Part shown: positions 15,438-40,937 of the stretch, piece after piece
Numbering within the stretch: position 1 is the stretch's first letter
Layout of the letters: each line of letters starts with the position of its first letter
From: Actinomycetota bacterium
GTDB lineage: Bacteria; Actinomycetota; Acidimicrobiia; Acidimicrobiales; JAFATL01
DNA: 53,464 nucleotides
Direction: 5' to 3'
NCBI GenBank assembly: GCA_041166245.1
Contig: JBEEFQ010000071.1
Span: forward strand, 1 to 53,464
Position numbers and translations under genes: made by a program
Notes under the pieces: generated by a model
Seen by the model: only the letters and a program-made list of their open reading frames with translations
The model's database searches: none
Told to the model about the DNA's origin: nothing

Positions 15438-15498
15438 GGGACGCGAGCGTAGGACGCGGGTGGGTAGCGTTGTCGGTGTCGGCAACGGGGGAGGGTCG

Positions 15499-17358: not shown

Positions 17359-17960
17359 GACGGCTGGCGATGGTCATGCTCTGCACCTTCGCCGCCTGCG
17401 GCGGCGGCTCGAGCGGCGACGGTGGTGGCGAGCAGTTCGGGACGCCCCCGACCGACGGGGCGCCGGCGGCGACGACGGCGTCAACGGCTCCGGCCGCGGC
17501 CGGTCGGCTCACGCCGGCGGCCGTGGAGGCATCCGCCACTGCCCCGCCGGGCACCGACGCACGGGGCGTGGTGGTCAGCTACGCGGCGACCAACCTCGTC
17601 GACGGCGATCCGTCGACGGCATGGCGGGTACCCGGCTCGGGCCAGGGTGTCGTGCTCACGCTGAAGTTCGCCAAGCCGGTCATCGTCACCCGCATCGGCA
17701 TCATCCCCGGCTACGCCAAGGTCGACCCGGCCGACGGCAGCAACCGCTTCTTCCAGAACCGCAGAGTGCACCGGGTCCGCTACGGGGCGGTGGGCATCAG
17801 CCGCGAGGCCAGCTTCGTCGACCAGCCCGAGCTACAGACGGTCGACGTGGTCTCGAAGCCGAGCACGTCGGTCACGGTGGAGATCCTCGAGTCGACGGCG
17901 CCAGGTGACCGGGACTTCACGGCGGTCTCCGAGATCGAAGTCAGCGGCTTGCCGGCGTGA
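17355..17960 (+). CDS. lipoprotein with discoidin (F5/8 type C)-like domain
   Basis: Lipobox LCTFAAC-GGG. ATNLVDGDPSTAWRV ... FTAVSEIEV resembles discoidin/NedA-type domains. GTG 17355 overlaps the upstream TGA (GTGA); the track start is 17343. Confidence 0.7.
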   Translation: MRRLAMVMLCTFAACGGGSSGDGGGEQFGTPPTDGAPAATTASTAPAAAGRLTPAAVEASATAPPGTDARGVVVSYAATNLVDGDPSTAWRVPGSGQGVVLTLKFAKPVIVTRIGIIPGYAKVDPADGSNRFFQNRRVHRVRYGAVGISREASFVDQPELQTVDVVSKPSTSVTVEILESTAPGDRDFTAVSEIEVSGLPA

Positions 17961-28819: not shown

Positions 28820-29947
28820 GTGGCGTTGCAGGTTGGCGACGGGAGGGCTCGATCGGTGGTCGAGCCGACGCGCACGTCGGACCCTGCCCACGATGTGTTC
28901 GGCTCGCTCTATCAGGAGCATGCGTCCCGTGTCCGAGCACTTGTACGGCGCCGGATACGAGACAACGGGCTCGTCGAGGACATCGTGCAGGAAACGTTCG
29001 TTCGTGCCCACCGGGGCATCGCGCACTTCGACGATGACCGCTCACCGTGGCCATGGCTCGCGACAGTGGCGCGCAACCTCTGCATCGATGCTGCGCGGCA
29101 ACGGGCCCGGGTCAGAGAAGACCTCTGTGCCGAGCTTCCTCGGGCCGTCCTGGCTCGGTCGGATGCGCACTCCGACCCCCACGCCCGCCTCATGGATCGG
29201 AACCGGTTGCGCGGGCTGAAGGAGGCGATGTCGAGTCTCTCCGACAAGGAGCGGCGGGTGCTCCTGATGAGGGAGGTCGATGGGTTGTGCTACGACGACC
29301 TGGCCGAACTCGAGGGTCTGACGCTGGACGCGATCAAGTCGATGTTGAAGCGTGCCCGACGAACCGTACGCGCGTCATACGCCGCCCTGGCTGACTCGCG
29401 AGGCTTGGCGGGTATCGCCGGGCTGACGGCCAACGCCATGGCCCGTGCGCGCAACCGTCTGGGGCGTGTGCCCCACGCCGCCTCGGTGTGGAGCCGCGTC
29501 GGCTTGCCCCTCGAGGCCATGGCGTCAGCGGTTGCGGCCACGCTCATGGTGACGACGGCGGTCCTTGTCGGCCCCGGGGACGTGCACCCTGGTGGCGGAT
29601 CGATCGGCAACGCCACTCGTGTGGTGCGTCCAGGGGTCGAGCAGCGGTCGGTGGGCCCGACGGAATCGGCACCGCGCGGCGGCTCGAGGGCCACACCGAG
29701 CCCTGGCGGGTCCAAGGCGTCGCTCACCGCGGCCCGCGCCGCGGGGGCCGGGCCGATCGATGCTGGGGCCGACACCGCGTTTCGCCGTGGCGAGAACCTC
29801 ACGCTGAACGCCAAGGTCTTCGCCAAAACCCCCGCGAGGCGGGACCCGCTGGAGGGCGGCGGTTGGGCTGACATCGAATGCATGAAGAACGAAGTGCGAG
29901 AGACGGCGTGTGGCGCTGTCGATCTGATACCGGAACCCGGCGGCTGA
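28820..29947 (+). CDS. ECF-type sigma-70 factor with about 180-aa C-terminal extension containing a predicted TM segment
   Basis: Region 2 (DIVQETFVRAHRGIAHFD, WLATVARNLCIDAAR) and region 4 (LSDKERRVLLMREVDGLCYDDLAELEGLTLDAIKSMLKRARR). These are followed by the hydrophobic AMASAVAATLMVTTAVLVG and a Gly/Pro/Ala-rich tail. Confidence 0.8.
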   Translation: MALQVGDGRARSVVEPTRTSDPAHDVFGSLYQEHASRVRALVRRRIRDNGLVEDIVQETFVRAHRGIAHFDDDRSPWPWLATVARNLCIDAARQRARVREDLCAELPRAVLARSDAHSDPHARLMDRNRLRGLKEAMSSLSDKERRVLLMREVDGLCYDDLAELEGLTLDAIKSMLKRARRTVRASYAALADSRGLAGIAGLTANAMARARNRLGRVPHAASVWSRVGLPLEAMASAVAATLMVTTAVLVGPGDVHPGGGSIGNATRVVRPGVEQRSVGPTESAPRGGSRATPSPGGSKASLTAARAAGAGPIDAGADTAFRRGENLTLNAKVFAKTPARRDPLEGGGWADIECMKNEVRETACGAVDLIPEPGG

Positions 29948-29965: not shown

Positions 29966-30289
29966 ATGGATGCTTTCGATCACAACCGCACGGGATGGTG
30001 GGTCCGCGCAGGTATCGGGTTGGCGGTTTCGGCCTGCGTCCTCCTCGTGTCGCTGGGCTTCTTCCCGGCGTCAGCGATCGCCCAGGCCTGCGCGGTGACG
30101 GGTGCGCCCGAGGCTGGATGTCCGGTGGAGTCGCCACCGGTCAGTCCGCCGCCGCAAACCAGAAACGATTGTTTTGGGGTCTACGTCGGCGGCGTGCGCT
30201 ACCAGAGCTGTCCGCCGCTGCCCATCGTCGTCTCGTTGCTGCCGACGGTGCTCGACGCGATAGACGATCTCATCCACAACCGATCCTGA
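29966..30289 (+). CDS. small secreted/membrane Cys-containing protein
   Basis: 107 aa, GAGGAG SD 8 nt upstream. Signal/anchor WWVRAGIGLAVSACVLLVSLGFFPASAIAQA followed by four Cys residues. No family recognised. Confidence 0.55.
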   Translation: MDAFDHNRTGWWVRAGIGLAVSACVLLVSLGFFPASAIAQACAVTGAPEAGCPVESPPVSPPPQTRNDCFGVYVGGVRYQSCPPLPIVVSLLPTVLDAIDDLIHNRS

Positions 30290-30355: not shown

Positions 30356-31342
30356 GTGATGCACGCGACGGTCCTCGACACCGAGATCAGCTGCCTCTCT
30401 TTCGCCGGCGTCAGCGTGTCGGTGGACGCGCCGCACGACGTGCTGGCGATGGTCCACAGGGAGTTCGGCCCGGCGCCGCCAGAGTCGTCGTTGGTAGCAG
30501 CCTGGCGTGTCGTCGTTCGCTACGAGCCGGACCCCGAGGCCTGTGCTCGCGGCGTCCTGCAAGCCGAGGAGCACCTCCTCATCGCCAACGACCTGGGTGC
30601 CAACCGGGTGCTCTGGGGTGGCCCGGGCGGAGCGGCTGTGCGTGTCTACGAGGGCGGGGTCGGGTTCTCCCAGAGCCGGGACGGATCCACCCTCGTCGTC
30701 GTCCGCGACCACGCCGCCGCGGTCTGGGTCGTTCGATCAGAGATCTGCGCAGCGGTCATGACCTCGCTGGCCGCAGCCTCGTGGACCGTGTTGCACGCCG
30801 GAGTGGTGGCTTCTGATTCGGGCCGTGGCGTCGTGATCGCTGGACCGAAGGGCGCCGGGAAGAGCACGACTTCGTTGTTGGCCTGGCACTTCGGGTACCG
30901 GTTGCTGACTGACGAGGCGTGCTTCTTCACGGAGCGGGACGTCCGCCGTGTGCACGGGCTGCACCGCCGACCCGCCGTGTCGGCGAGCACGGCCCGGGCC
31001 TACGGATTCGACGATCTGCGCCTGGGTCCTCAGCTGCTCGGAAAGCGCCTGGTCAACCTGGAGTGCGATCCGGTGGGTGACTGCTGGCTGGAGGCCGTCA
31101 TCTTCCCGCGCTTCGAGGAGGGTGGATCAGCAGCGTTCGACCTGATGTCCCCAGAAGCCTCCGACGACGCGCTGCAGACGGTGCTGACCAGTGCGCCCAG
31201 CGACGCGACCTCTGCCCTGGACGCCCTGATCGCTGCGGTGCCGTTCTACACCTGGCGATACGGCAGGGACCTACCTCAGAACGCAGAGGCGCTTCGAACC
31301 GAGCTCGGCGAGATCGTCGGTCCGCCGAAGGAGCCGCGCTGA
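30356..31342 (+). CDS. HPr-kinase-related (HprK C-terminal-like) P-loop kinase
   Basis: VLHAGVVASDSGRGVVIAGPKGAGKSTTSL: an HprK-like Walker A preceded by the H-[AG]-[SG] strand, as in RiPP-associated HprK-related kinases. Confidence 0.7.
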   Translation: MMHATVLDTEISCLSFAGVSVSVDAPHDVLAMVHREFGPAPPESSLVAAWRVVVRYEPDPEACARGVLQAEEHLLIANDLGANRVLWGGPGGAAVRVYEGGVGFSQSRDGSTLVVVRDHAAAVWVVRSEICAAVMTSLAAASWTVLHAGVVASDSGRGVVIAGPKGAGKSTTSLLAWHFGYRLLTDEACFFTERDVRRVHGLHRRPAVSASTARAYGFDDLRLGPQLLGKRLVNLECDPVGDCWLEAVIFPRFEEGGSAAFDLMSPEASDDALQTVLTSAPSDATSALDALIAAVPFYTWRYGRDLPQNAEALRTELGEIVGPPKEPR

Positions 31343-32073
31343 TGACGGCAACGGAGAACCTGTCGAGAGTCGAGCTGCCGGCCACCGAGTGGCTGCTCGG
31401 GCGGCTCGATGTTCCGGTCGTCGGATTGATCCATCACGGGTCCACTGCTCTCGGTCTGGGCAACGAGCGTTCCGACATCGACATCCTCGCGCTCAGCCAT
31501 GCCGCGGGTCGCCGGCCGCTCCAGGTCGTTGGGTGGGAGCGATCGGTCCATGTCGACTACCGCAGGCCCAGCGACCTTGATCCCGAGCAGTTGTCCGAGC
31601 TCCTGCTCTCGAGGATGTTCGACACCAACTCGATCGTGACTCGGATATCGACGGGCATCGTCGTCTTCGACACCGACGGCGTGGCCGCCGCGCTCGTCGG
31701 CCGGTTCCGCGACTGGCGCCTGCCTGAGCTGGTGGCCAAGAAGCTGGTGCTGGAGGTGCTCGGCTTTCTGAACGACGTCTCGGGGGCGTTGGGTGACGAC
31801 GAAACCGAGACAGCTGACGTCCTGCTGCGCCTAGTGGCCCACTCCCTGGCCAAGGCCGCGCTGATCGACGCCGGTGTCCACGTCGTGGCCCCGAAATGGC
31901 AGTACCGGCTCCTGGAGCGGCACGCCCCGGTGGCCGCACGTGGCTTCCTCGAAGTCGCCGGACTCGGCGCGGCGCCGTCGGCGCTGACCGCCAGGTACGC
32001 CGCGGCCCGGGCTTGGCTGCGAGAGATTCGTGACCGGTTCGCGCTGCGCGCCGCCACGGGGGACCTGGCGTGA
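31342..32073 (+). CDS. Pol-beta-superfamily nucleotidyltransferase domain protein
   Basis: hG[GS]-x10-DhDh signature HHGSTALGLGNERSDIDIL followed by a helical domain. The start ATG overlaps the upstream TGA by 1 nt. Confidence 0.7.
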   Translation: MTATENLSRVELPATEWLLGRLDVPVVGLIHHGSTALGLGNERSDIDILALSHAAGRRPLQVVGWERSVHVDYRRPSDLDPEQLSELLLSRMFDTNSIVTRISTGIVVFDTDGVAAALVGRFRDWRLPELVAKKLVLEVLGFLNDVSGALGDDETETADVLLRLVAHSLAKAALIDAGVHVVAPKWQYRLLERHAPVAARGFLEVAGLGAAPSALTARYAAARAWLREIRDRFALRAATGDLA

Positions 32074-33281
32074 ACCGGCTCCTCGTCAGGCGCCCCCAGA
32101 TCCTCGGAGTGAGGTCCGATGACGCTTTCCTTGTCTTTGACCCCCGGACAGGTGCGGCCATGCGGGCACCCGCGGAGCTGTCGGACCATTGGTCGGAGCT
32201 CGCCGCGGGCATCGACCCTGCGCTGCTGCCCGAAGCGGCGACGACATCGCTGTTGCGCCGGGGCGTTGTCCGGCTCGTAGAACAGCGCGGCGACCTGTCG
32301 CGGCCGGACCGCGGAGCGGCGCCGCCATTCCGCCGCTCGGCCCAGCCGAGGGTCGAGCTCGACTGTCCCGAGTCCGACCAGCTGCTCCTCCGGGGCCTGC
32401 TGGGGCACGACCACGCCGGTCCCGGACCTGCCCTCAGGATCGAGCTTCGTCGGCGACCGTGTCGTGTCCTGCCACAGGGCTTTGCGCGAGTCGGTGTCGG
32501 GCGGGACTTCGAGGTGTTCGAGCAGGACGCCGCCATGTTGCTCCGGGGCTCGGGCTGGACCGCCGGACTCGAGATCGGCGCGGATGGGGCCAGGTTGCGC
32601 GCTACGTACGAGGACGCGCTCGAGACTGTCCTCGAACCGCTCGTGAAGCTGACCGACGACGCGCTGGCGTGGCTCTACGAGCACCACCGGTTGGGAGTGA
32701 CGCTCCACGCGTCGGGCATCGCTCTCGGGACGGCAGGCGTGGCCCTGTGCGGCGACTCGGGGATGGGGAAGACCTCTCTCGCGGGAGCTCTCGTGCGATC
32801 GAGCGCCGCCTGCTGCTCGCTCGGCGACGACCTCGTGATCGTCACCACTGCGAACGCGGCAGCGCCGATGATGCGGCGGGCACCCTCGGCGCGGTTCACG
32901 CGCAACGGCACTGGTCCGCGGCGCCTCGAGCCGACCGCAGCCTTTTCGGGTCGCGTCGAGCTGCGCATGGTCTGCCTGCTGTCGAGGGTCTCCTCACTGC
33001 GAGTCGACGTGAGCGAGGTTCCCGCGCAGGCAGCGTGGGCGACCCTCATGCGTTCGCGGGCCGCCAGTCGGCGGTACGTCGCCACCGCGGTCCGGCGCCG
33101 GGATCGTGCGCTCGACGAGTGGGTCGCGACCGAGCTGTTGCGCCTCTGCCAAGACGTCGAGACGGCGACCGTCGTGATCGGGGAGGACCAAGTCGGCCGC
33201 GCCGCCCAAGCGGTCCTGGCGCGGGTCGCGCCCCCCGAATCCCGTAGGGAAGCACAACGTCCATCACCGGAAGGGAGGTGA
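32070..33281 (+). CDS. HprK-related P-loop kinase with N-terminal PqqD/RRE-like segment
   Basis: TLHASGIALGTAGVALCGDSGMGKTSLAGAL (HprK-like Walker A). N-terminal AFLVFDPRTGAAMRAPAELSDHWSEL...LLRRGVV resembles PqqD-type peptide-binding domains. GTGA overlap with the upstream gene. Confidence 0.65.
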   Translation: MNRLLVRRPQILGVRSDDAFLVFDPRTGAAMRAPAELSDHWSELAAGIDPALLPEAATTSLLRRGVVRLVEQRGDLSRPDRGAAPPFRRSAQPRVELDCPESDQLLLRGLLGHDHAGPGPALRIELRRRPCRVLPQGFARVGVGRDFEVFEQDAAMLLRGSGWTAGLEIGADGARLRATYEDALETVLEPLVKLTDDALAWLYEHHRLGVTLHASGIALGTAGVALCGDSGMGKTSLAGALVRSSAACCSLGDDLVIVTTANAAAPMMRRAPSARFTRNGTGPRRLEPTAAFSGRVELRMVCLLSRVSSLRVDVSEVPAQAAWATLMRSRAASRRYVATAVRRRDRALDEWVATELLRLCQDVETATVVIGEDQVGRAAQAVLARVAPPESRREAQRPSPEGR

Positions 33282-33286
33282 AGCGC

Positions 33287-33412
33287 ATGACCACGTCCGA
33301 TCGTTCCGAGCCGGGCCGGGAGATCCCGGCATGGGAGCTCGTGGACCTTGACGAGCGGCAGCTCCCGCAGCTGCTCAACGCCATCAAGGCCTGGATAGCC
33401 AGCATCAGCTAG
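33287..33412 (+). CDS. small ORF 1 (41 aa), candidate precursor peptide MTTSDRSEPGREIPAWELVDLDERQLPQLLNAIKAWIASIS
   Basis: ATG sits 5 nt after the kinase stop, with SD GGAAGGGAGG upstream. Paralogous to sORF2 and sORF3. Not in the ORF track because it is shorter than 60 aa. Confidence 0.65.
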   Translation: MTTSDRSEPGREIPAWELVDLDERQLPQLLNAIKAWIASIS

Positions 33413-33437
33413 CCCACTCACGAAGAAAGGAAGCGAC

Positions 33438-33572
33438 ATGGAGCAGGCGAGCTGTCGCACCGATGGGTGCATCGACTCGATGGCGACGTGGGACCTGGTC
33501 GATCTCGACGAACGGCAGTCCCCGATCGCGAAGCTGATCTTCGACGCCGTCCTCGAGTGGGTCATCAGCTGA
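33438..33572 (+). CDS. small ORF 2 (44 aa), candidate precursor peptide MEQASCRTDGCIDSMATWDLVDLDERQSPIAKLIFDAVLEWVIS
   Basis: ATG preceded by GAAAGGAAG. Shares W-x-L-V-D-L-D-E-R-Q and a C-terminal W-V-I-S. The last 15 nt (TGGGTCATCAGCTGA) are identical to sORF3. Confidence 0.65.
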   Translation: MEQASCRTDGCIDSMATWDLVDLDERQSPIAKLIFDAVLEWVIS

Positions 33573-33700
33573 GAAGCGGGCCACCGGTTCCAAGGACCGC
33601 AGCAGAACAGCACGACGGGAGCATCGGATCGGTCGCCCCGTTTCGAATTGCTCGACGGGCTGTCCCAAGAAGCTCATCAAACAACTGACTGGGAGGTCAC

Positions 33701-33814
33701 GTGAAGCCCATCAACTGCAGCGAGTCGGCCTGGAGGCTCGACGACCTGGACGAACGCCAAGCGGCGATCTGGAAGGAGATCGGCATCGCCGTCCTGGCGT
33801 GGGTCATCAGCTGA
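33701..33814 (+). CDS. small ORF 3 (37 aa), candidate precursor peptide MKPINCSESAWRLDDLDERQAAIWKEIGIAVLAWVIS
   Basis: GTG preceded by GGGAGG at 4-nt spacing. Has the same conserved core and the same C-terminal WVIS-stop as sORF2. Confidence 0.6.
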   Translation: MKPINCSESAWRLDDLDERQAAIWKEIGIAVLAWVIS

Positions 33815-33870
33815 CTCGGATCCTGGGGAGGGGCGTCGGCGGCGCCCCCTACCCGACACAGGGAGACCAC

Positions 33871-35085
33871 ATGACTTCCTCTATGACAACCGACCCCCCT
33901 GCTGGTGCCGCTGTGGTGCGGCACGAGCCGGGCGCAGCCGTTGGAGACGTGAAGGTCGATGGGCGGCCCGTCCTGGGCTTCGTCGGCCGCGAACGCTTCG
34001 TCCTGCTGACCGAGCAGCAGCAACGAGTGTGGAGCCTGATCCCGGCCCACGGCTGTTCGACCGCCGAGTTGCAGGAGCATTACGAGGCGGCTTCGGACGA
34101 CGCGGGCGACTGGATCCCCCGTTTCCTGAGCGAGCTCCGGAGCCGGGGCTTTCTCGCAACGCCGGATGGGCCGACCGAGGAGGTTCGAGGCGAGCCGGCC
34201 GTGATGGTGAGTGCGCAGCCGAGCCGGCTCCTGGCTGACGTATCGATTCGCCTGCCCGGCAGGCTCCGCGAGGCGCTGGAGCTGGTCGGTCGATCGGCCG
34301 CGTTGAGCCGTGGTGCGCTTGCGGCCCAGGCGGCCCTGGTGGTCGTCGCGGTCGTGGTGCACGGACGGGACGTTCTGCGAGGCCCCGGCACGGCCATGGC
34401 AGGGTTGGACCTCGTCCACGTCGTGGCGGTCTACGGACTGTTTGTCTTGACGGCGGTCGTGCACGAGCTGGGCCACGCCTTGGCGATGGCGCGTTATACC
34501 GACGCCCCGCGTCGAGGCGGCCTGATGGTGCGGTACGTGCTCTTCGTCGGCTTCTACGTGCGAACCACGGGCGCGTGGGCGCTGCCTCGGCGACAGCGCG
34601 TCATCGTTGGCCTCGCCGGACCGTGGCTCAACTTCGTATGTGGAGCGCTCCTGTTCTTCTCCGGCCATGCCGTCCAGGGCGACGAGGGGGCAACCCTCGT
34701 CGCGGCCGGGTCCCTCAGCGTGCTGGTGGGCGCGCTCAACCTCTTTCCGTTCTTCTTGAAAACGGACGGCTACTACGTCCTCAACGACCTGCTCGAGACG
34801 TCCAACTGGAGGCGCCGTGGTTCCAGCATTGCGCTCGCGATCGTCCGGCGCTCCCGCCCCATCGGCTCGTTGAGCCTCCGCGACCGCATCATCGTCTGGG
34901 CCTTTGTGCTGCAGGCCGGCTTCTGGCTGTTTCTGTTGCACCGGGTGAGCCATGGCCTCTCGCGGCTGACGGGGTTGTCGCCGGTCGCCGTCGTCCTTGT
35001 GTTGGTCGGTGTTCCTCGCCTGGGTCCACTCGGTCGCTACGTTCGAGCTCGGCTTGCGGTCCGGCGCCAGGGAAGGCCGACATGA
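33871..35085 (+). CDS. M50 (site-2-protease-like) membrane zinc metallopeptidase with N-terminal PqqD/RRE-like domain
   Basis: HELGHA in a TM helix plus NLFPFFLKTDGYYV (the NxxPxxxxDG motif of the S2P family). The N-terminal FVLLTEQQQRVWSLIPAHGCSTAELQEHY...FLSELRSRGFL is PqqD-like. ATG 33871 follows GGGAGA. Confidence 0.75.
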   Translation: MTSSMTTDPPAGAAVVRHEPGAAVGDVKVDGRPVLGFVGRERFVLLTEQQQRVWSLIPAHGCSTAELQEHYEAASDDAGDWIPRFLSELRSRGFLATPDGPTEEVRGEPAVMVSAQPSRLLADVSIRLPGRLREALELVGRSAALSRGALAAQAALVVVAVVVHGRDVLRGPGTAMAGLDLVHVVAVYGLFVLTAVVHELGHALAMARYTDAPRRGGLMVRYVLFVGFYVRTTGAWALPRRQRVIVGLAGPWLNFVCGALLFFSGHAVQGDEGATLVAAGSLSVLVGALNLFPFFLKTDGYYVLNDLLETSNWRRRGSSIALAIVRRSRPIGSLSLRDRIIVWAFVLQAGFWLFLLHRVSHGLSRLTGLSPVAVVLVLVGVPRLGPLGRYVRARLAVRRQGRPT

Positions 35086-36635
35086 CCCGTCGGGTCATCG
35101 CCGTTGCCGCCCTCATCGCCGCCTTCCTCGCTGGAGTGCCGATCACGTTCACGGCTGCGGCCGCTGCAGCGGCGGGTCCCCCCGTCCTCGCTGTCATCAG
35201 CACCGGTCTGGACGTCGGTCACGAGCAGTTCGCCTACGGCGGGCCGTTGGACACGACTGACCAGATCGTCGCATGGTGGGACTTCACAGCCACGGTCGCG
35301 CCTTTGCACGAGCCGGACGTCGGACAGATCTGGGACTCCGCGGTGCCGGACCCGTATGACACCGTCGGTGAAGGGACCGCGGCGACATCGCTCGCGGCCG
35401 GCGCGGGCCGGTACGGCGACGCTACGCCGGCGTTGGCGCCCGGCGGTCAGGTGGCGGTGGCCCGGGTGTGTCAGGAGACGGTGTGCGACGGCAAGCTGTC
35501 CGTCGCGATCCGATGGGCGGTCGACACCGTCCAGGCGGACGTCGTGTTGGTGACGCCGGGCTACAGCACGCCTTTCCCGGCGGAGCTCAACTACGTGGAC
35601 GAGGCCGTGCGCTATGCCCGGGAGCATGACGTGCTGGTCGTGGCCGGCCAGAGCTTGGGCTCCCGAGCGACGCCTGCCGAAGGCTCCGTCGGCGCGACGA
35701 ACTCGTTGGTGAACGCGTCGTCGGCGCTGCTTGTCGGGGCCGCGGACGATGCTGCGTGGTCGAGCGGTCGAGAGCTCGTGGTCCCGGCCGGATTGTCGGC
35801 TGCATCGACATCGTGCGCGGCTTGTTACGCGCCGGCGGCCGGACGGACGTACAACCCGCTGGCCGGCGGTTCCTCCGTGCCTGGGTACGTGGCGGGCATG
35901 GCCCTGCAAGCCCGTGCCGAAGCCCAGGCCGCCGGTAGGCCGGCCGACGCTGACCGCATCGAGACGCTTTTGAAATGGAGCGCACGCGACACTGACGCCA
36001 GCCCGGCGACCGAGGGCTACGGCATCCTCGACCGCCCTGCGTTCGACGACGACGTCGTGCCGCACGCGAGGGGAGGAACCCTTCCTGGTCGCCCGGCCCC
36101 CGATGTCAACGCCATATACGTCGAGCGGGTCGCTGGTCCGGCCCACGACGCGTGGACCGAGACGCTGGACGAGGAAGGGCTCAAGCTCCTTGTCCCGACC
36201 CCCCAGCCTGCGGGTTCGGGTGCTGGTCGCATCGCACCTGGCTCGGTGCCCGGGCGGACGGAGGTGGAGTCATACGCCGTGGCCCTGCAGCCGGGTGACG
36301 TCTTTGCGGTCGCCCTCTCCTTGGCCGCCGCCAGCGAGCCCGTGCCCGGCACCAACGACGTCGACCTCTTCGTCTTCGCTGGACGAGGTCCCACCTTCAC
36401 CGGCAGAGACATCCTCGCCAAGTCCGCGAACGGGCCCGGGGCGGACGAACACGTCGAGTACCGGGCCGTGGCCGCCGGGTGGGTGACGGTCGCGGTCGTG
36501 GGCTCGGTCGTGACAGGTGACCAGGACGTGGTTCTGGCCGGGCGGTCCTGGCCGGCGCCGAGCCTGCTCAGCTCCGCACCCGTCCAGATGCAGCTGCAGC
36601 TCAGCGACGAGCGATTCTACGTGGGCACTTCCTGA
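35082..36635 (+). CDS. secreted subtilisin (S8)-like protein with degenerate catalytic motifs and C-terminal PPC (pre-peptidase C-terminal)-like domain
   Basis: Signal peptide MTRRVIAVAALIAAFLAGVPITFTAAAAAAAG. S8-like blocks are AVISTGLDVGH, GEGTAATSLAAG and GGSSVPGYVAGMAL. The C-terminal DVDLFVF...GWVTVAVVG is PPC-like. ATGA overlap with the M50 gene. Confidence 0.7.
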   Translation: MTRRVIAVAALIAAFLAGVPITFTAAAAAAAGPPVLAVISTGLDVGHEQFAYGGPLDTTDQIVAWWDFTATVAPLHEPDVGQIWDSAVPDPYDTVGEGTAATSLAAGAGRYGDATPALAPGGQVAVARVCQETVCDGKLSVAIRWAVDTVQADVVLVTPGYSTPFPAELNYVDEAVRYAREHDVLVVAGQSLGSRATPAEGSVGATNSLVNASSALLVGAADDAAWSSGRELVVPAGLSAASTSCAACYAPAAGRTYNPLAGGSSVPGYVAGMALQARAEAQAAGRPADADRIETLLKWSARDTDASPATEGYGILDRPAFDDDVVPHARGGTLPGRPAPDVNAIYVERVAGPAHDAWTETLDEEGLKLLVPTPQPAGSGAGRIAPGSVPGRTEVESYAVALQPGDVFAVALSLAAASEPVPGTNDVDLFVFAGRGPTFTGRDILAKSANGPGADEHVEYRAVAAGWVTVAVVGSVVTGDQDVVLAGRSWPAPSLLSSAPVQMQLQLSDERFYVGTS

Positions 36636-36796: not shown

Positions 36797-38572
36797 GTGT
36801 TCGATGCCATCCCATGGCGCGGACGGGAAGGATGGGCAGTGACGTTGGAGCGACGGCGGGGGGGACGGAAATGGGTCCCGCTCGTTTCGGTGGCGGTGGC
36901 GTACGTGATGATCGCCACGCTGCTGCCCAACCCGCTGCGGATCCCGACCGACGAGGCGACCGCCACGGCGGAGTTCGCGCCCGTCGTCGGCAAGCGGACG
37001 AACCAGTCGGGCGGGAGTCTCTCCGAGACGGGCTTCGCCTCGAGCGAGGGGCTGGGCTCCGGCGGCGACGGACTCGGTGAGTTCGGCCTCGGCCTCGACA
37101 ACCCGCTGGCCCAGCTGCCCAGCCCTGTCAGCCGGCCCCGCCAGAAGACGTGTTACGGCGATCCCCCGCGCCAGGCAGAGGATCCGCTGTCCCCGCCATG
37201 TGTGGCGTTCTTCGAGGGTGACAACGGGGGCGCCACCTACCCGGGCGTCACCGGCGACAAGGTCACCGCGGTGATGTACGACGGCCTGTCGGACATCCCC
37301 GACGGCGAGGACATGTGCAAGCCCTACAGCGACGAGGACAGCCTCTCCACGCGCACGCTGAAGGCGATGCAGAACTACTTCCAGAAGCGCTACCAGACCT
37401 ACGGGCGTCGCGTCTGCATCGTCAAGCAGGCCGACTCGGGAGTCGAGGACGTCAATCGCAAGGGTGACGCCATCAAGACGGTGCAGGAGTACAACCCGTT
37501 CGCGGTCATGTCCTTCGCCGAGCCCAACGACGACGAGTACCTGAAGCAGATCTCGAAGCAGGGCGTCACCAGCTTCGGTCTGAACTTCTTCCAGCCCCAG
37601 TCGTACTACGAGCAGAACTCGCCCCTGGCCTTCTCCTTCTTCGACACGCGGGAGGAGCACGCGGAGATCACCGCTGCCTACATCTGCGAGAAGCTCATCA
37701 AGAACAAGGTCACCCACACCGACGACCCGACTCTCCGCGGCCAGACCCGCCGGGTCGGGCTCATCTACAACACTGGCGCGGAGTCGGCCGGCGGCGAGGA
37801 TATGGCCCCGGAGATCAAGCGGCGGGCCAAGCAGAAGTGCGGGTTCGAGTTCGCAGCCGAGTTCAAGTACCCCTACGACGCGACGACCTCCGGCGGCGCC
37901 GGCAACTCCCAGGCCATCGCCGACATGCGCAACAAGAACATCAACACCGTGTTCATGATGAGCTACGCCGACGCCATCCTCCTGGCCCAGCAGACGGCCA
38001 GCAACTCCGCCTACTTCCCCGAGTGGTTCGTCAACTCCACGTCGGTGCTCGACGTCGGCCCGGTGGCCCGCGTCTTCTCCGACCCCAGGCAGAAGACCTT
38101 CGGCGTGTCGCTCCGGTGGCGTACGCCGGGCATCAGGGAGACGTTCTGGTACCAGGCGTACCAGAGCGAGCAGCCCAACACGCTGGCCGAGGCCCGTTGG
38201 GGATTCAGCTGGTACTACCTGCTGCTCAACCTCTTCACCGCGGTGCAGGCCGCCGGGCCCAAGCTCACCCCGGACGCCATCGCCCGAGGCATGTTCACGT
38301 TCAAGACCGACCAGCTGGACAATCCCTACGTGCCGAGCGGGGAGTACGGCGAGCCCGCCGACTACGCGTTCGTGAGCTCGTACATGGAGTTCTTCTGGGA
38401 CCCGCGGGGAACGCCGCCGGACGGCAATCCCAGCGAAGGGTGCGTTCGCGTCACCAACGAAGGTCGCCGCTTCAGACCGGGCGGCGTCGGCAGTGACGAG
38501 AGCGGCTTGTTCAACCCGGCATCACCTTGTACCGCTGACATCCGCCTGCTCCAAGACGGAGTGGGCGCTTAA
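36797..38572 (+). CDS. membrane-anchored extracytoplasmic protein, possibly a type-I periplasmic-binding-protein (LivJ-like) fold
   Basis: N-terminal anchor KWVPLVSVAVAYVMIATLL. The about 500-aa ectodomain has alternating beta-alpha character. The start is GTG 36797 or GTG 36839 (after GGGAAGGA). The family call is tentative. Confidence 0.6.
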   Translation: MFDAIPWRGREGWAVTLERRRGGRKWVPLVSVAVAYVMIATLLPNPLRIPTDEATATAEFAPVVGKRTNQSGGSLSETGFASSEGLGSGGDGLGEFGLGLDNPLAQLPSPVSRPRQKTCYGDPPRQAEDPLSPPCVAFFEGDNGGATYPGVTGDKVTAVMYDGLSDIPDGEDMCKPYSDEDSLSTRTLKAMQNYFQKRYQTYGRRVCIVKQADSGVEDVNRKGDAIKTVQEYNPFAVMSFAEPNDDEYLKQISKQGVTSFGLNFFQPQSYYEQNSPLAFSFFDTREEHAEITAAYICEKLIKNKVTHTDDPTLRGQTRRVGLIYNTGAESAGGEDMAPEIKRRAKQKCGFEFAAEFKYPYDATTSGGAGNSQAIADMRNKNINTVFMMSYADAILLAQQTASNSAYFPEWFVNSTSVLDVGPVARVFSDPRQKTFGVSLRWRTPGIRETFWYQAYQSEQPNTLAEARWGFSWYYLLLNLFTAVQAAGPKLTPDAIARGMFTFKTDQLDNPYVPSGEYGEPADYAFVSSYMEFFWDPRGTPPDGNPSEGCVRVTNEGRRFRPGGVGSDESGLFNPASPCTADIRLLQDGVGA

Positions 38573-38586
38573 GCCCCGGAGGAATC

Positions 38587-39633
38587 GTGGCCACTCCTAC
38601 CAACAACCGTCTCAGGTCCAGAGGCCCGCGGCCGCCGCGCCGGGGGCCGAGCGGTATCGACCCGACCGAGTTCAGCCGCAACTTCGAAGCGGTCGTGAGC
38701 AACGTGATGGAGGTGATCCAGGGCAAGGAGGACGTCGTGCGCCTTGCCCTGGTGGCCATGCTGGCCGAGGGCCATGTGCTCTTCGAGGACGTGCCTGGCA
38801 CCGGCAAGACGGTCATGGCCCGGGCCCTGGCCCAGTCGATGAATGCCATCGCCCAGCGCATCCAGTGCACGCCCGACATGCTCCCCGGTGACATCACCGG
38901 TTCGTCGATCTACGACGCGAGCAAGGGCGAGTTCACCTACATGCCAGGGCCGGTGTTCGCCAATGTGCTCCTGTCCGACGAGATCAACCGAGCCACGCCG
39001 AAGACGCAGTCGGCCCTGCTCGAGGCCATGGCCGAGCGCAAGGTGACCGTGGACGGGACGACTCGTCTGCTGCCGCGCCCGTTCCTCGTGCTCGCCACCC
39101 AGAACCCGGTGGAGCAGGCGGGCACGTTCCCGCTTCCTGAAGCCCAGCTCGACCGCTTCCTGTTCAAGCTCTCGGTGGGCTACCCCGACCGCGACGCGGA
39201 GCAGCGGATCATGCTGAGCAACTCCCGCCAGCTCGCCATCGAGGACCTCGGCTCCGTGGTCGACACGCCGGTGATCTCGCAGATGATCGAGTTCGCGACC
39301 GACATCGAGGTCTCCGAGGCCGTCGGCTACTACATCGTCGACCTGGCCCAGGCGACGCGTGCCGACACCGCCCTCATCCTCGGTGCCTCGCCGCGGGCGC
39401 CCATCGCCCTGCTGCGCGCCGCCCGCGTGCTGGCTGCGAGTGACGGGCGCAACGACGTGTACCCCGACGACGTGCGTCACGTCCTCAAGCCGGTGATGGC
39501 CCACCGCCTGATCCTGGCGCCGGACGCCGTGCTGCGGGGCGAGACGGTGGACGCCGTCCTCGACCGCGTGCTCGGCCGCGTCAAGGCGCCGCTCATGGCC
39601 GACGTCACCGGCAAGTCACCCGCGGCCCGCTGA
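38587..39633 (+). CDS. MoxR-family AAA+ ATPase
   Basis: Walker A DVPGTGKTVMARAL, Walker B LLSDEINR, ATQNPVEQAGTFPLPEAQLDRF. GGAGGA SD. Confidence 0.92.
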   Translation: MATPTNNRLRSRGPRPPRRGPSGIDPTEFSRNFEAVVSNVMEVIQGKEDVVRLALVAMLAEGHVLFEDVPGTGKTVMARALAQSMNAIAQRIQCTPDMLPGDITGSSIYDASKGEFTYMPGPVFANVLLSDEINRATPKTQSALLEAMAERKVTVDGTTRLLPRPFLVLATQNPVEQAGTFPLPEAQLDRFLFKLSVGYPDRDAEQRIMLSNSRQLAIEDLGSVVDTPVISQMIEFATDIEVSEAVGYYIVDLAQATRADTALILGASPRAPIALLRAARVLAASDGRNDVYPDDVRHVLKPVMAHRLILAPDAVLRGETVDAVLDRVLGRVKAPLMADVTGKSPAAR

Positions 39634-39643
39634 ACCTCCACTG

Positions 39644-40930
39644 ATGCGCCGCCGTCTCCTCGAGCTCTCAGACCGGTTGCGGGCCAACCTGGCCCTGCGC
39701 CGGATCTCGTCCGTCATCCGGACGCTCGAGCGGCGTGCGGGCATCACCCGCACGGGCGAGGTCGGCATCGTGCTGGCGGTGCTGCTCTGGTTGATGGCGC
39801 GCGTGTTCGCCGGCGTCACGCTCTACCTCGTCGCCTACGGCGCGCTGCTGCTCATCGTCGTGTCGTGGCTCACCGTGCGCCGTCGCCTTCCGCTGGAAGG
39901 GGGGCGCACCGAGCTGCGGGCGCGCGCCCGAGTGGGCGAGGTGCTGACGGTCGGGCTGGAGCTCCGGGCCCGCCGCCGTCTGTCGACCATCGTCTTGGAG
40001 GAGGCGTTGCCGGAGAAGCTCGGGGATCCCGTGCGCCTGCCGATCGCCAGCATCGCGGGCGGTGAGGAGGTCACCCACGAGTACCGGTTGGCCTGCACGC
40101 GGCGCGGCGCCTACACGGTCGGTCCGCTCGTGGCGCGCTGGGGTGATCCGTTCGGGGTCTGCCAGCGGGAGATGGTGCTGGCCGAGCCCTTCGAGGTGCT
40201 GGTGCACCCGGCAATCGAGAACGTCAGCGACCGCCCGCTGACCCGGCAGTTCGAGGACCCGCCCATCCGCCCGCCCGTCTCGAAGCCCTGGCCTTCTGGG
40301 CTCGAGTTCTACGGCATGCGCGAGTACGTGCGGGGCGACGACCTGCGCCGCATCGTCTGGCGGGCGACGGCTCGCACCGGCAAGGTGATGGTGCGCGAGG
40401 CCGAACAGGGGATCACCGACCGCATCACCATCCTGGTCGACTCCGACCGCACGTACCACGGTCGGGAGACACCCTCAGAATCGTTCGAGGCCGCCATCAG
40501 GGCGGCGGCGTCGCTCGGCGTCAAGCATCTGGGCGAGGGCTACAGCGTCACGGTCGAGGCCAACGCGGGCCCGGTCACGCGGGCGCTGCGCGGCGCAGGC
40601 TCGCAGATCCGCATGCTCGACGCGCTCGCTCGGCTCGACATGGACCGTGAGCCGTTGACGTCGAACATCATGCGCCGCGTCTCCGACCCCCGGTCGGACG
40701 CCCACAACATCCTCATCACCCCCCGGCTCAAGCCGGCCGACGCCGCCCAGCTGCGCATGTTGTTGAACCGTGGCCTGTCGGTCCTCGTGATCGCCCTCAT
40801 GTGGGACGACGAGGCGAGCGAGACGCTGAACACGGCGGCCGCGCTGGGGTGCCAGGTCGTGGAGCTCCGGCCGGGCCAGAGCATCGCCGCCGCCATGTCG
40901 ATCGAAGTCGGAGCGGGACAGCGACTGTGA
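39644..40930 (+). CDS. DUF58 domain protein (vWA-like MoxR partner)
   Basis: Two N-terminal TM helices and the DUF58 signature YGMREYVRGDDLRRIVWRATARTGKVMVRE. Confidence 0.88.
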   Translation: MRRRLLELSDRLRANLALRRISSVIRTLERRAGITRTGEVGIVLAVLLWLMARVFAGVTLYLVAYGALLLIVVSWLTVRRRLPLEGGRTELRARARVGEVLTVGLELRARRRLSTIVLEEALPEKLGDPVRLPIASIAGGEEVTHEYRLACTRRGAYTVGPLVARWGDPFGVCQREMVLAEPFEVLVHPAIENVSDRPLTRQFEDPPIRPPVSKPWPSGLEFYGMREYVRGDDLRRIVWRATARTGKVMVREAEQGITDRITILVDSDRTYHGRETPSESFEAAIRAAASLGVKHLGEGYSVTVEANAGPVTRALRGAGSQIRMLDALARLDMDREPLTSNIMRRVSDPRSDAHNILITPRLKPADAAQLRMLLNRGLSVLVIALMWDDEASETLNTAAALGCQVVELRPGQSIAAAMSIEVGAGQRL

Positions 40931-40937
40931 GCCACCG

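Follow-up and report, generated by a model that had tools for sequence, protein, structure and literature searches.

A family of candidate precursor peptides encoded beside two HprK-like kinases, a nucleotidyltransferase and an M50 protease in an Actinomycetota genome

A 53,464-nucleotide stretch of an Actinomycetota genome, referred to here as the window, contains three small open reading frames (sORF1 to sORF3) that are real genes under purifying selection and syntenic with a set of enzyme genes. Their products are probably the substrate (precursor) peptides, paralogous to one another, of a small biosynthetic operon, which would consist of kinase-1, a Pol-beta nucleotidyltransferase, kinase-2 with its RRE-like N-terminus, the candidate precursors A1–A3, an RRE-M50 protease and an S8-like protein (Table 1). 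An earlier note on this DNA had proposed three + strand ORFs of 41, 44 and 37 aa, and we recovered all of them at the same positions. It had also described them as missing from the ORF track; this is true of the track given to its reader, but the NCBI record of the MAG annotates the three as hypothetical proteins.

Table 1. Features of the candidate operon and its surroundings (positions in the window).
Feature	Position	Strand	Description	Peptide	Basis or NCBI locus
ECF-type sigma factor	28820-29947	+	375 aa, long C-terminal extension		Sigma70_r2 7e-19, r4_2 2e-11
Kinase-1	30356-31342	+	HprK-like P-loop protein, 328 aa		HprK_rel_A, Hpr_kinase_C
Nucleotidyltransferase	31342-32073	+	Pol-beta-type, 243 aa		NTP_transf_2
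Kinase-2	32070-33281	+	HprK/PEPCK-fold, 403 aa, PqqD/RRE-like N-terminal domain of ~75 aa		AF2/Foldseek
sORF1 (candidate precursor A1)	33287-33412	+	41 aa, ATG start	MTTSDRSEPGREIPAWELVDLDERQLPQLLNAIKAWIASIS	NCBI QOG87_910
sORF2 (candidate precursor A2)	33438-33572	+	44 aa, ATG start	MEQASCRTDGCIDSMATWDLVDLDERQSPIAKLIFDAVLEWVIS	NCBI QOG87_911
Spacer sORF2/sORF3	33573-33700	+	Non-coding		
sORF3 (candidate precursor A3)	33701-33814	+	37 aa, GTG start	MKPINCSESAWRLDDLDERQAAIWKEIGIAVLAWVIS	NCBI QOG87_912
M50 protease	33871-35085	+	Site-2-type intramembrane metalloprotease, 404 aa, candidate leader peptidase		Pfam/NCBIfam
S8-like protein	35082-36635	+	Secreted, subtilase-like, 517 aa		Peptidase_S8, PPC

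The purine-rich SD sites described in the note are present 5' of all three sORFs: GGAAGGGAGG ends 9 nt before ATG 33287, GAAAGGAAG ends 4 nt before ATG 33438 and GGGAGG ends 4 nt before GTG 33701. For sORF1 an alternative upstream GTG at 33278 would give a 44 aa product. All three peptides carry the motif W-x-L-x-D-L-D-E-R-Q, and both the alignment of the note, with its DLDERQ block, and the identical 15 nt end of sORF2 and sORF3 (TGGGTCATCAGCTGA) were reproduced. The C-terminal halves form hydrophobic or amphipathic helices (GRAVY 0.2-1.6). Conservation does not extend to the N-terminal cysteines, which the note listed as a further shared feature: residue 6 of sORF3, a Cys in the window, is Thr in a closely related contig (L122), and the peptides of sORF1 and of two distant metagenomic loci (L001 and L123) contain no Cys at all.

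Several measures show that the + frame is the coding frame. GC3 is 0.88-0.95 in the sORFs and 0.82-0.94 in genes of the genome, whose GC content is 70%. Comparison of the paralogs within the motif gave pS values near saturation (0.80-0.88) and pN values of only 0.08-0.19, and third-position-biased variation with conserved amino acids is seen in the + frame only. A degenerate DNA pattern for W-x-L-x-D-L-D-E-R-Q matches exactly three times in 53 kb, each time within an sORF, and found no match in shuffled sequence (n=100) even with 2 mismatches allowed. The contig L122, 93% identical to the window, gives a second view at shorter distance. Its sORFs are 94.7-97.6% identical to ours with no indels (97.6% for sORF2). 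The spacer separating sORF2 from sORF3 reaches 84.9% identity and has 5 indel columns (Fisher p = 7e-4 for sORFs against spacer), which cluster towards its 5' end; the 5' ~50 nt of this spacer are variable and the 3' ~80 nt, as far as the sORF3 SD, conserved. Relative to the neighbouring spacer (p = 7e-4) and to the M50 N-terminus (p = 8e-5), substitutions in the sORFs accumulate about 4-fold more slowly. The sORF3 variant of L122 (P0037) differs by C6T, S7N and I23L, together with 2 synonymous changes.

The known loci number three (window, L001 and L123), plus L122 as one close variant. L001 encodes kinase-1, nucleotidyltransferase and kinase-2 (35%, 47% and 29% identity), followed by MNTQTNEEVVEEVEVWDLIELDDRQLPQLLTWLKEKALELKSLFT; L123 encodes nucleotidyltransferase and kinase-2, followed by MDSVEPTEDSWKVVDLADRETPALLHAIISWLLS and, right after it, the start of an RRE-M50-like ORF. 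In both, a homologous sORF sits directly 3' of the orthologous kinase/nucleotidyltransferase operon. Enzyme identity to these distant loci is only 29-47%, yet the peptide motif is kept, and peptide-level conservation persists between loci whose DNA is highly diverged. The family motif reads W-x-(L/V)-x-(D/E)-L-x-(D/E)-R-(Q/E), with both Trp, the Leu and the Arg invariant, and sORF1 is the window peptide closest to those of L001 and L123 (W-x-L-x-D-L-D-E-R-Q-L-P-Q-L-L). Members are 34-45 aa long, and an SD is present in 5/5. Their C-terminal 27 residues are conserved across loci, while the N-terminal parts are unrelated in both sequence and length. The last residue is Ser in four of the five distinct peptides and Thr in the fifth, against a background S+T frequency of 0.11. 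This arrangement of sORFs and enzymes is what would be expected of precursor or substrate peptides co-evolving with their modifying enzymes. Generic features of the precursors of RiPPs (ribosomally made, modified peptides) are also found here, namely short co-oriented ORFs beside tailoring enzymes, retained synteny, and a conserved motif accompanied by variable regions. The precursor-peptide reading of the earlier note is therefore supported by conservation of the + frame, by the substitution rates relative to L122 and by sORF/enzyme synteny in L001 and L123, and from this context we infer, with good support, that A1–A3 are candidate RiPP precursors.

The enzyme types of the operon are established at the level of fold or motif, all family matches being below curated cut-offs. 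Kinase-1 matches NCBIfam HprK_rel_A (2.7e-10) and Pfam Hpr_kinase_C (0.002) and has the motif residues His-Lys-Asp-Glu (LHAG...GPKGAGKST...LLTDE); its ortholog in L001 is 35% identical (E = 9e-25). The nucleotidyltransferase, whose start overlaps the kinase-1 stop, matches Pfam NTP_transf_2 at 8.7e-4 and contains G-S-x10-D-I-D. No other enzyme of the module is as well conserved: it shows 47% identity to L001 (E = 6e-42) and has a further ortholog in L123. It gave no match to the PF14907-type lasso-associated family at the thresholds used, and a single-sequence AF2 model was unusable (pLDDT 42). Kinase-2 was modelled by AF2 with pLDDT 71 and pTM 0.72, and its top Foldseek matches were PEPCK (1e-4) and HprK/P (3e-3 to 1e-2). 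Residues H213, K234, D253 and D254 are conserved across 31 homologs; His-Lys-Asp-Asp is the motif of lasso-tailoring kinases (PMC9266682).

The M50 protein has HELGH and N-L-F-P-x4-D-G and matches Pfam Peptidase_M50 at 5.7e-9. Its best NCBIfam match is the daptide protease model NF041824 (daptide_HExxH, 4.8e-27), at 95 bits against a 300-bit cut-off and over the membrane domain only, and it also matches the YydH/LiaK epipeptide protease model (4e-10). The start of the S8-like protein overlaps the M50 stop (ATGA). This protein has a signal-peptide-like N-terminus, and its Pfam matches are Peptidase_S8 (5.9e-4, below cut-off) together with PPC (0.013). At the position of the catalytic Asp a weak alignment places I-S-T-G against I-D-S-G of subtilisin, and the protein may be catalytically degenerate. 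The earlier note had spoken of RRE-containing enzymes, and for kinase-2 and M50 such domains are suggested by weak PqqD-like N-termini. The kinase-2 N-terminus aligns to lasso PqqD with E = 6.6e-4 at 27% probability (hhalign) and is modelled by AF2 as strand-strand-strand-helix-helix at low confidence (pLDDT 50-68); the M50 N-terminus matches PqqD at E = 0.039, below cut-off. Kinase-2 of L123, on the other hand, lacks the N-terminal PqqD-like domain altogether.

On these grounds a pathway can be proposed. The acidic W-x-L-x-(D/E)-L-x-(D/E)-R-(Q/E)-x-P segment would serve as the recognition sequence, bound by the PqqD-like domains of kinase-2 and the protease. Kinase-1, kinase-2 or both would place a phosphate, or perhaps several in turn, on a hydroxyl residue of the peptide, and by analogy with lasso-tailoring kinases the most likely target would be the invariant C-terminal Ser/Thr after the second conserved Trp. 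The nucleotidyltransferase might then add a nucleotidyl or sugar-phosphate-type group to the phosphate or hydroxyl. M50 would cut off the N-terminal part, probably just after R-Q-x-P if daptides are a guide. What remains would be a linear helix of 12-18 residues, hydrophobic or amphipathic, whose C-terminus is bulky and anionic. Modification site, chemistry, cleavage site and bioactivity are all putative. As a tentative proposal, which we consider possible but hold with limited confidence, the cluster may be the founding example of an undescribed RiPP class of soil Actinomycetota, in which a phosphate-linked group (polyphospho-, nucleotidyl- or glycosyl-phospho-) would be assembled by two divergent HprK-like kinases together with a Pol-beta nucleotidyltransferase. 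It would sit at the C-terminal Ser/Thr of short, linear and helical peptides, which a daptide-type RRE-M50 would then release.

The same peptides could be read the other way round, with the hypervariable, hydrophilic and Ser/Thr-rich N-terminal 10-17 residues as the modified core and W...W-x-x-S as a C-terminal follower, as in bottromycin; the latter segment may then be a membrane-targeting helix cleaved off by M50. Site-2 proteases cleave inside hydrophobic helices, in line with such a role, and the contrast between fully divergent N-termini and 27 conserved C-terminal residues could point to an N-terminal core. Two of the three amino-acid changes between window and L122 are N-terminal (C6T, S7N), and every N-terminal part has several Ser/Thr. 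However, no N-terminal position is conserved as Ser/Thr, and the N-terminal ends of leaders are commonly unconstrained. The known systems point in both directions. The phosphorylated Ser of the linear polyphosphorylated peptides (LPPs) of Bacillota is core residue 3 and not C-terminal (Popov et al., Nat Commun 2026, PMC13381572). In contrast, the daptide protease, an RRE-site-2-protease fusion, removes an N-terminal leader with an acidic motif before a hydrophobic core, and the order of elements is the same here (PMC10028931); the invariant terminal Ser/Thr is also the kind of site that the related lasso kinases prefer (PMC9266682). We consider an N-terminal core unlikely and retain the C-terminal one.

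It is more doubtful still that the sORF products, though genuine small proteins, are no precursors but act as regulators or adaptors of the kinases and nucleotidyltransferase or as unmodified membrane-active peptides, with M50 and the S8-like protein belonging to ECF sigma/anti-sigma signalling. Site-2 proteases classically activate ECF sigma factors, and directly upstream lie a small membrane protein and an ECF sigma factor, the latter carrying a transmembrane extension and also matched by NCBIfam sigma70-ECF. With this neighbour, and looking at the window by itself, M50 may have a part in cleaving an anti-sigma factor. The helical character of the peptide C-terminal halves and the weakness of all enzyme matches would also agree with such a role. 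Yet M50 matches RiPP-maturation models (daptide, YydH/LiaK) and not RseP/RasP-type proteases, sORF-M50 adjacency recurs in L123, and multi-copy paralogs directly 3' of kinases related only to RiPP-tailoring enzymes favour a precursor role. L001, moreover, has a GerE/LuxR regulator in place of the ECF sigma factor; the sigma factor is therefore not a conserved part of the system, and what links it to the pathway is its position. It is a possible regulator of the cluster, of uncertain membership. No dedicated exporter was found adjoining the operon.

The remaining reading, that the sORFs are untranslated and owe their conservation to an RNA element or to the long antisense ORFs open across the region (33405-33680 and 33677-33859), is effectively refuted by the sequence comparisons, since amino acids are conserved with third-position variation in the + frame only and across highly diverged DNA, the antisense ORFs have GC3 of just 0.62 and 0.59 and lose their frame relationship in L122 through net frameshifting indels between the two, and the spacer 33573-33700 has neither an Rfam match nor a significant RNA fold (z = 0.17). 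To the earlier note the antisense ORFs had looked spurious, and nothing that it had named as speaking against its own reading turned up. A transcription attenuator or terminator between the sORFs was likewise rejected, no such site being found there.

The system is extremely rare. Besides the window protein (P0004), only two members of the kinase-2 family were found (P0006 and P0007), making three representatives among 1.84 billion protein clusters, and because of this rarity generic mining would miss the cluster. P0006 shows a faint Pfam match to PF27840 ('ScmC'). The next-nearest, remote relatives of kinase-2 are found in lasso clusters (L124, the P0009 contig and L125); among other matches L126 is unrelated, and the contigs of P0015 and P0008 are too short for context. 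In word-indexed homology searches, neither the peptide profile nor kinase-2 nor M50 found any protein beyond those of the window itself. Alignment searches yielded no matches for the peptides in genome contigs, for the peptides or the nucleotidyltransferase in metagenome contigs, or, by tblastn, for the nucleotidyltransferase in plasmids. Sequences in the PDB offered nothing meaningful for either kinase-2 or the nucleotidyltransferase. The degenerate motif pattern gave at least 120 matches in genome contigs, and the in-frame ones among the matches listed were chance occurrences inside larger ORFs.

Lasso cyclase, signal peptidase I and the daptide enzymes are all absent from the window, so that its candidate product is not a lasso peptide, an LPP or a daptide, although it resembles each of them in part. 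LPPs demonstrate that HprK and NTP-transferase modules work on linear peptides too (PMC13381572). Shared with them are a linear RiPP without a macrolactam synthetase, a conserved HprK-like kinase and uncharacterised NTP transferase, 1-3 precursor genes per cluster and a conserved recognition motif, which in LPPs is read by an RRE. The predicted tailoring pair of the LPP type is present as two HprK-like proteins (by fold and motif) and a Pol-beta nucleotidyltransferase motif, G-S-x10-D-x-D. The window departs from LPP clusters in having a pair of divergent HprK-like kinases and an RRE-M50 protease, in lacking both an SpI and a discrete RRE gene, in its motif W-x-L-x-D-L-D-E-R-Q, in its much shorter peptides (34-45 aa) and in its Actinomycetota host. 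No signal-peptidase family match corresponding to the SpI-like (SipW-type) peptidase LppS was found among the ORFs at 26-41 kb or elsewhere in the window, where the proteases are of the M50 and S8-like kinds. The LPP leader motif YxxPxVLxHQxIxFETxxS (PMC13381572) occurs in 0/5 peptides, none of which has any Tyr-x-x-Pro. LPP membership was rejected on the missing SpI and the different leader.

In lasso clusters, the still linear precursor receives one or several phosphates on its C-terminal Ser from HprK-like kinases, and the NTP transferase PsmN adds a hexose onto that phosphate (PMC6993621; PMC9266682). The window resembles the paeninodin/pseudomycoidin type (PadeK, ThcoK, PsmK; PsmN) in its His-Lys-Asp-Asp kinase and its NTP transferase, and the conserved C-terminal Ser of phosphorylated lasso precursors has its counterpart in window peptides ending in Ser; with such a kinase beside a Ser-ending precursor, phosphorylation is predicted. 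Unlike phosphorylated lasso precursors, these peptides lack the YxxPxL...T leader and an obvious ring-forming architecture, and one family member ends in Thr. Neither a lasso cyclase (Asn_synthase, PF00733) nor a B2 peptidase was found in any ORF of the 53-kb window, a negative that applies to the window only, L001 and L123 being too short to judge. The one transglutaminase in the window is TgpA, within a MoxR-DUF58-TgpA operon. A lasso peptide was rejected for want of a cyclase.

Daptide precursors are multi-copy; their acidic leader motif (ELExMEAP) precedes a hydrophobic helix, and the site of modification is a hydroxy residue that invariably forms the C-terminus. MpaC is strictly Thr-specific and does not accept Ser (Ren et al. 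2023, PMC10028931). The window shares the multi-copy short precursors, an acidic motif with a Pro end, the hydrophobic helix and the C-terminal hydroxy residue, and the best NCBIfam match of its M50 is the daptide protease model, at 95 bits against a 300-bit cut-off. It differs in a Ser C-terminus in 4/5 peptides, in a leader motif unlike ELExMEAP, and in the absence of MpaB, MpaC, MpaD and MpaM (DUF-RRE, Fe-ADH-type decarboxylase, aminotransferase, methyltransferase); no Fe-ADH, aminotransferase or methyltransferase was found in or near the operon. Assignment as a daptide was rejected on the wrong terminal residue and the missing Mpa enzymes.

If our reading is correct, both the precursor family and the architecture of the cluster are new among ribosomal peptide natural products, and they come with a compact ~6 kb kinase/nucleotidyltransferase module for C-terminal peptide modification. 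Actinomycetota would then join the hosts in which peptides are (poly)phosphorylated and their phosphates decorated. On the more tentative view of an undescribed RiPP class, the system would be the first HprK-type peptide phosphorylation system beyond the lasso and LPP contexts and an anionic counterpart of the daptides with their cationic terminus. Its practical interest lies in an operon that can be tested directly and brings three natural substrates with it. The main reading joins the HprK-type phosphorylation of linear peptides known from LPPs (2026) with the C-terminal tailoring and RRE-M50 leader removal known from daptides (2023).

Three + strand small ORFs (sORF1-3), proposed in the earlier note, are present between the stop of the 403-aa kinase-2 gene (33281) and the start of the M50 protease gene (33871), each with the purine-rich Shine-Dalgarno sequence that had been described, 4-9 nt upstream. 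In the aligned peptides the W-x-L-x-D-L-D-E-R-Q block, a second Trp and the terminal Ser are invariant. The core is unique to these sites: its degenerate DNA pattern matches only the three sORFs in 53 kb (GC content 70%), and 100 shuffles gave no match with two mismatches permitted. N-terminal Cys, put forward as a shared trait, is not a conserved feature of the peptides. The ORFs had also been described as missing from the ORF track; they are real, and the NCBI record (two window proteins named 'MAG: Actinomycetota bacterium', locus tags QOG87_909-912) has all three as hypothetical proteins.

Features of the window discussed in the text
Feature	Position	Strand	Remarks
Tandem bacterial dynamin-like GTPase genes	4253-7521	+	Dynamin_N; DUF6941 and PilZ-domain genes before them
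Two divergently oriented Hsp70/MreB-like ATPase genes	12918-17960		one with DUF6777 fusion
ECF sigma factor	28820-29947	+	~185-aa C-terminal extension with hydrophobic segment
Small membrane or secreted protein	29966-30289		107 aa, Cys-containing; right before kinase-1
Kinase-1	30356-31342	+	HprK_rel_A 2.7e-10, under curated cut-off
Pol-beta nucleotidyltransferase	31342-32073	+	G-S-x10-D-I-D motif; NTP_transf_2 9e-4, under curated cut-off
Kinase-2	32070-33281	+	family matches under curated cut-offs
sORF1	33287-33412	+	41 aa
Antisense ORF	33405-33680	-	GC3 0.62
sORF2	33438-33572	+	44 aa
Spacer	33573-33700
Antisense ORF	33677-33859	-	GC3 0.59
sORF3	33701-33814	+	37 aa, GTG start
M50 protease	33871-35085	+	HELGH, NxxPxxxxDG motifs
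S8/subtilase-like secreted protein	35082-36635	+	ATG overlaps M50 stop (ATGA); Pfam match under cut-off
591-aa protein	36797-38572	+	hydrophobic N-terminal segment
MoxR-DUF58-TgpA (transglutaminase) operon	38587-43184

The + frame of the sORFs has GC1/2/3 values of about 0.6/0.43/0.9, a profile that matches the GC3 of this genome's genes (0.82-0.94) and is a signature of real genes; the antisense ORFs, earlier suspected to be spurious, fall below that range. Amino-acid conservation follows the + rather than the antisense frame, with pS of 0.80-0.88 and pN of 0.08-0.19 between the paralogs in the 11-codon motif region. L122, a 504-bp forest-soil contig 93% identical to the window, was reached through P0037, a naturally occurring sORF3 variant. 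Identity is 97.6% over the partial sORF2 and 94.7% over sORF3, with no indel columns, against 84.9% (five indel columns) in the spacer and 82.5% (one) in the M50 N-terminus. Substitutions are fewer in the sORFs than in the spacer (Fisher p = 7e-4) or the M50 N-terminus (p = 8e-5), and the indels alter the frame relation between the two antisense ORFs. Composition, pS/pN and the L122 comparison together show that the sORFs are genes under purifying selection and the antisense ORFs shadows. Against L122 the spacer itself is bipartite: roughly its 5' 50 nt are full of substitutions and indels, and the remaining ~80 nt, as far as the sORF3 Shine-Dalgarno, are about 94% conserved. The pattern might reflect a promoter or processing site inside the operon that serves sORF3-M50, but the spacer showed neither a sigma-70-like promoter nor a terminator or stable fold.

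Word-indexed protein searches returned self matches only, and four collection scans gave no relative, for one of them among the matches listed. When kinase-2 was run exhaustively by HMMER against 1.84 billion cluster representatives, two real relatives turned up beyond the window's own protein (P0004), namely P0006 (E = 9e-18) and P0007 (E = 8e-11), along with a tail of generic HprK-like proteins; with a family HMM these three members score >380 bits and all else <51 bits. In both metagenomic loci a motif peptide follows the orthologous enzymes. L001, encoding P0006, carries a LuxR-type regulator and then orthologs of kinase-1, the nucleotidyltransferase and kinase-2 (35%, 47% and 29% identity), followed 65 nt downstream by a 45-aa sORF with a strong Shine-Dalgarno, MNTQTNEEVVEEVEVWDLIELDDRQLPQLLTWLKEKALELKSLFT. 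The regulator, a divergently oriented LuxR/GerE protein, stands where the window has its ECF sigma factor. L123, encoding P0007, comprises the end of kinase-1, the nucleotidyltransferase, a shorter kinase-2, directly after it the sORF MDSVEPTEDSWKVVDLADRETPALLHAIISWLLS, and the beginning of an ORF similar to the window's M50 N-terminus. Four positions never vary among the five distinct peptides, namely both Trp, one Leu and the Arg, and the last residue is Ser in four and Thr in one (background S+T frequency 0.11). Since the motif is more conserved than the adjoining enzymes, it behaves as a recognition sequence.

The genes for kinase-1, the nucleotidyltransferase and kinase-2 have overlapping stops and starts. 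An AF2 model of kinase-2 (31 sequences; pLDDT 71, pTM 0.72) matches PEPCK and HprK/P structures, and the protein retains His213, Lys234, Asp253 and Asp254, which form the His-Lys-Asp-Asp tetrad that lasso-tailoring kinases cannot do without (PMC9266682); kinase-1 has His-Lys-Asp-Glu. Its N-terminus (~75 aa) is modelled at low confidence with a strand-strand-strand-helix-helix topology and aligns weakly with a lasso PqqD (E = 6.6e-4, probability 27%). P0007 (272 aa; L123 1081-1899), whose gene start overlaps the nucleotidyltransferase stop, is without the ~110-aa N-terminal PqqD-like domain of the window and L001 proteins, which suggests that this domain is not universally required or that recognition falls to the M50 N-terminal domain. 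Remote kinase-2 relatives that can be placed in context lie in lasso clusters: that on the P0009 contig is beside Asn_synthase and PqqD genes, and in L125 (6071-11106) the kinase has Asn_synthase genes on one side and a PqqD gene on the other. In L124 (208-1885) the kinase and a methyltransferase-like ORF come after a tandem pair of precursor-like ORFs that share the motif (Y/N)HAP(S/L)LVEYGSVR and do not have Ser as their C-terminal residue.

The M50 protein best matches the NCBIfam daptide leader protease (4.8e-27) and YydH/LiaK epipeptide protease, and its N-terminus has a weak PqqD-like match (E = 0.039). The S8-like gene is translationally coupled to it; the catalytic Asp position appears as I-S-T-G rather than I-D-S/T-G, and the sequence has no evident His motif of the HGT type. 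The gene may encode a pseudo-protease, or else a protease that has diverged strongly. The 591-aa protein between this gene and the MoxR-DUF58-TgpA operon has no Pfam or NCBIfam match. Further upstream, the Hsp70/MreB-like ATPases, followed by a protein with a NADase_transloc (F5/8 type C-like) domain, form an unusual non-chaperone Hsp70 pairing.

Paeninodin-type HprK-like kinases phosphorylate the side chain of a conserved C-terminal Ser, often repeatedly, on a linear precursor and in a leader-dependent manner (PMC9266682; PMC6993621), and the NTP transferase PsmN then puts a hexose on that phosphate (PMC6993621). Such a kinase-transferase pair defines the linear polyphosphorylated peptides (LPP; PMC13381572), and in daptides an RRE-site-2-protease fusion takes the leader off multi-copy precursors (PMC10028931). 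By analogy, W-x-L-x-D-L-D-E-R-Q-x-P would be read by RRE-like domains, the terminal Ser/Thr phosphorylated by kinase-1 and/or kinase-2 and the product decorated by the nucleotidyltransferase, with M50 cutting shortly past R-Q-x-P. The predicted outcome is hydrophobic/amphipathic peptides of 12-18 residues (GRAVY 0.2-1.6) with a bulky, anionic C-terminus. Of this picture the data show that the genes are real, selected and syntenic and what folds and motifs the enzymes have; that the peptides are the substrates, where and how they are modified and cleaved, and what activity results are inferred. The main rival keeps the pathway and swaps the roles, a hypervariable N-terminal core preceding a conserved C-terminal follower; the N-terminal 10-17 residues are indeed unrelated among the five peptides, the terminal Ser/Thr suits the paeninodin-like chemistry, and we regard the swap as unlikely. 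Quite improbable is that the sORFs are non-RiPP small proteins tied to ECF signalling; an ECF sigma factor is encoded nearby, and the motif peptides follow the tailoring-type kinases in L001 and L123 as well. That they are non-coding is scarcely credible given the selection on the + frame, and the region matches no Rfam family and has neither a significant RNA fold nor a terminator.

Our preferred reading, C-terminal tailoring of a leader-bearing precursor, makes this a candidate new RiPP family assembled from known enzyme types. We found no description in the literature of the kinase-nucleotidyltransferase-kinase-sORF-M50 architecture. Bioinformatically predicted RiPP families are many and the chemistry here is putative; the system is exceptionally rare, the finding solid and directly testable. 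The whole window encodes no Asn-synthase-type lasso cyclase, B2 peptidase, signal peptidase I (SpI) or daptide Mpa-type enzyme. Unlike LPP, the system has neither SpI nor a YxxP leader, and unlike lasso peptides no cyclase, so both memberships were ruled out; daptides were rejected because the peptides end in Ser and their Mpa enzymes are missing. In its workings it would couple a protease of the daptide type to a tailoring module such as those of LPP or paeninodin.
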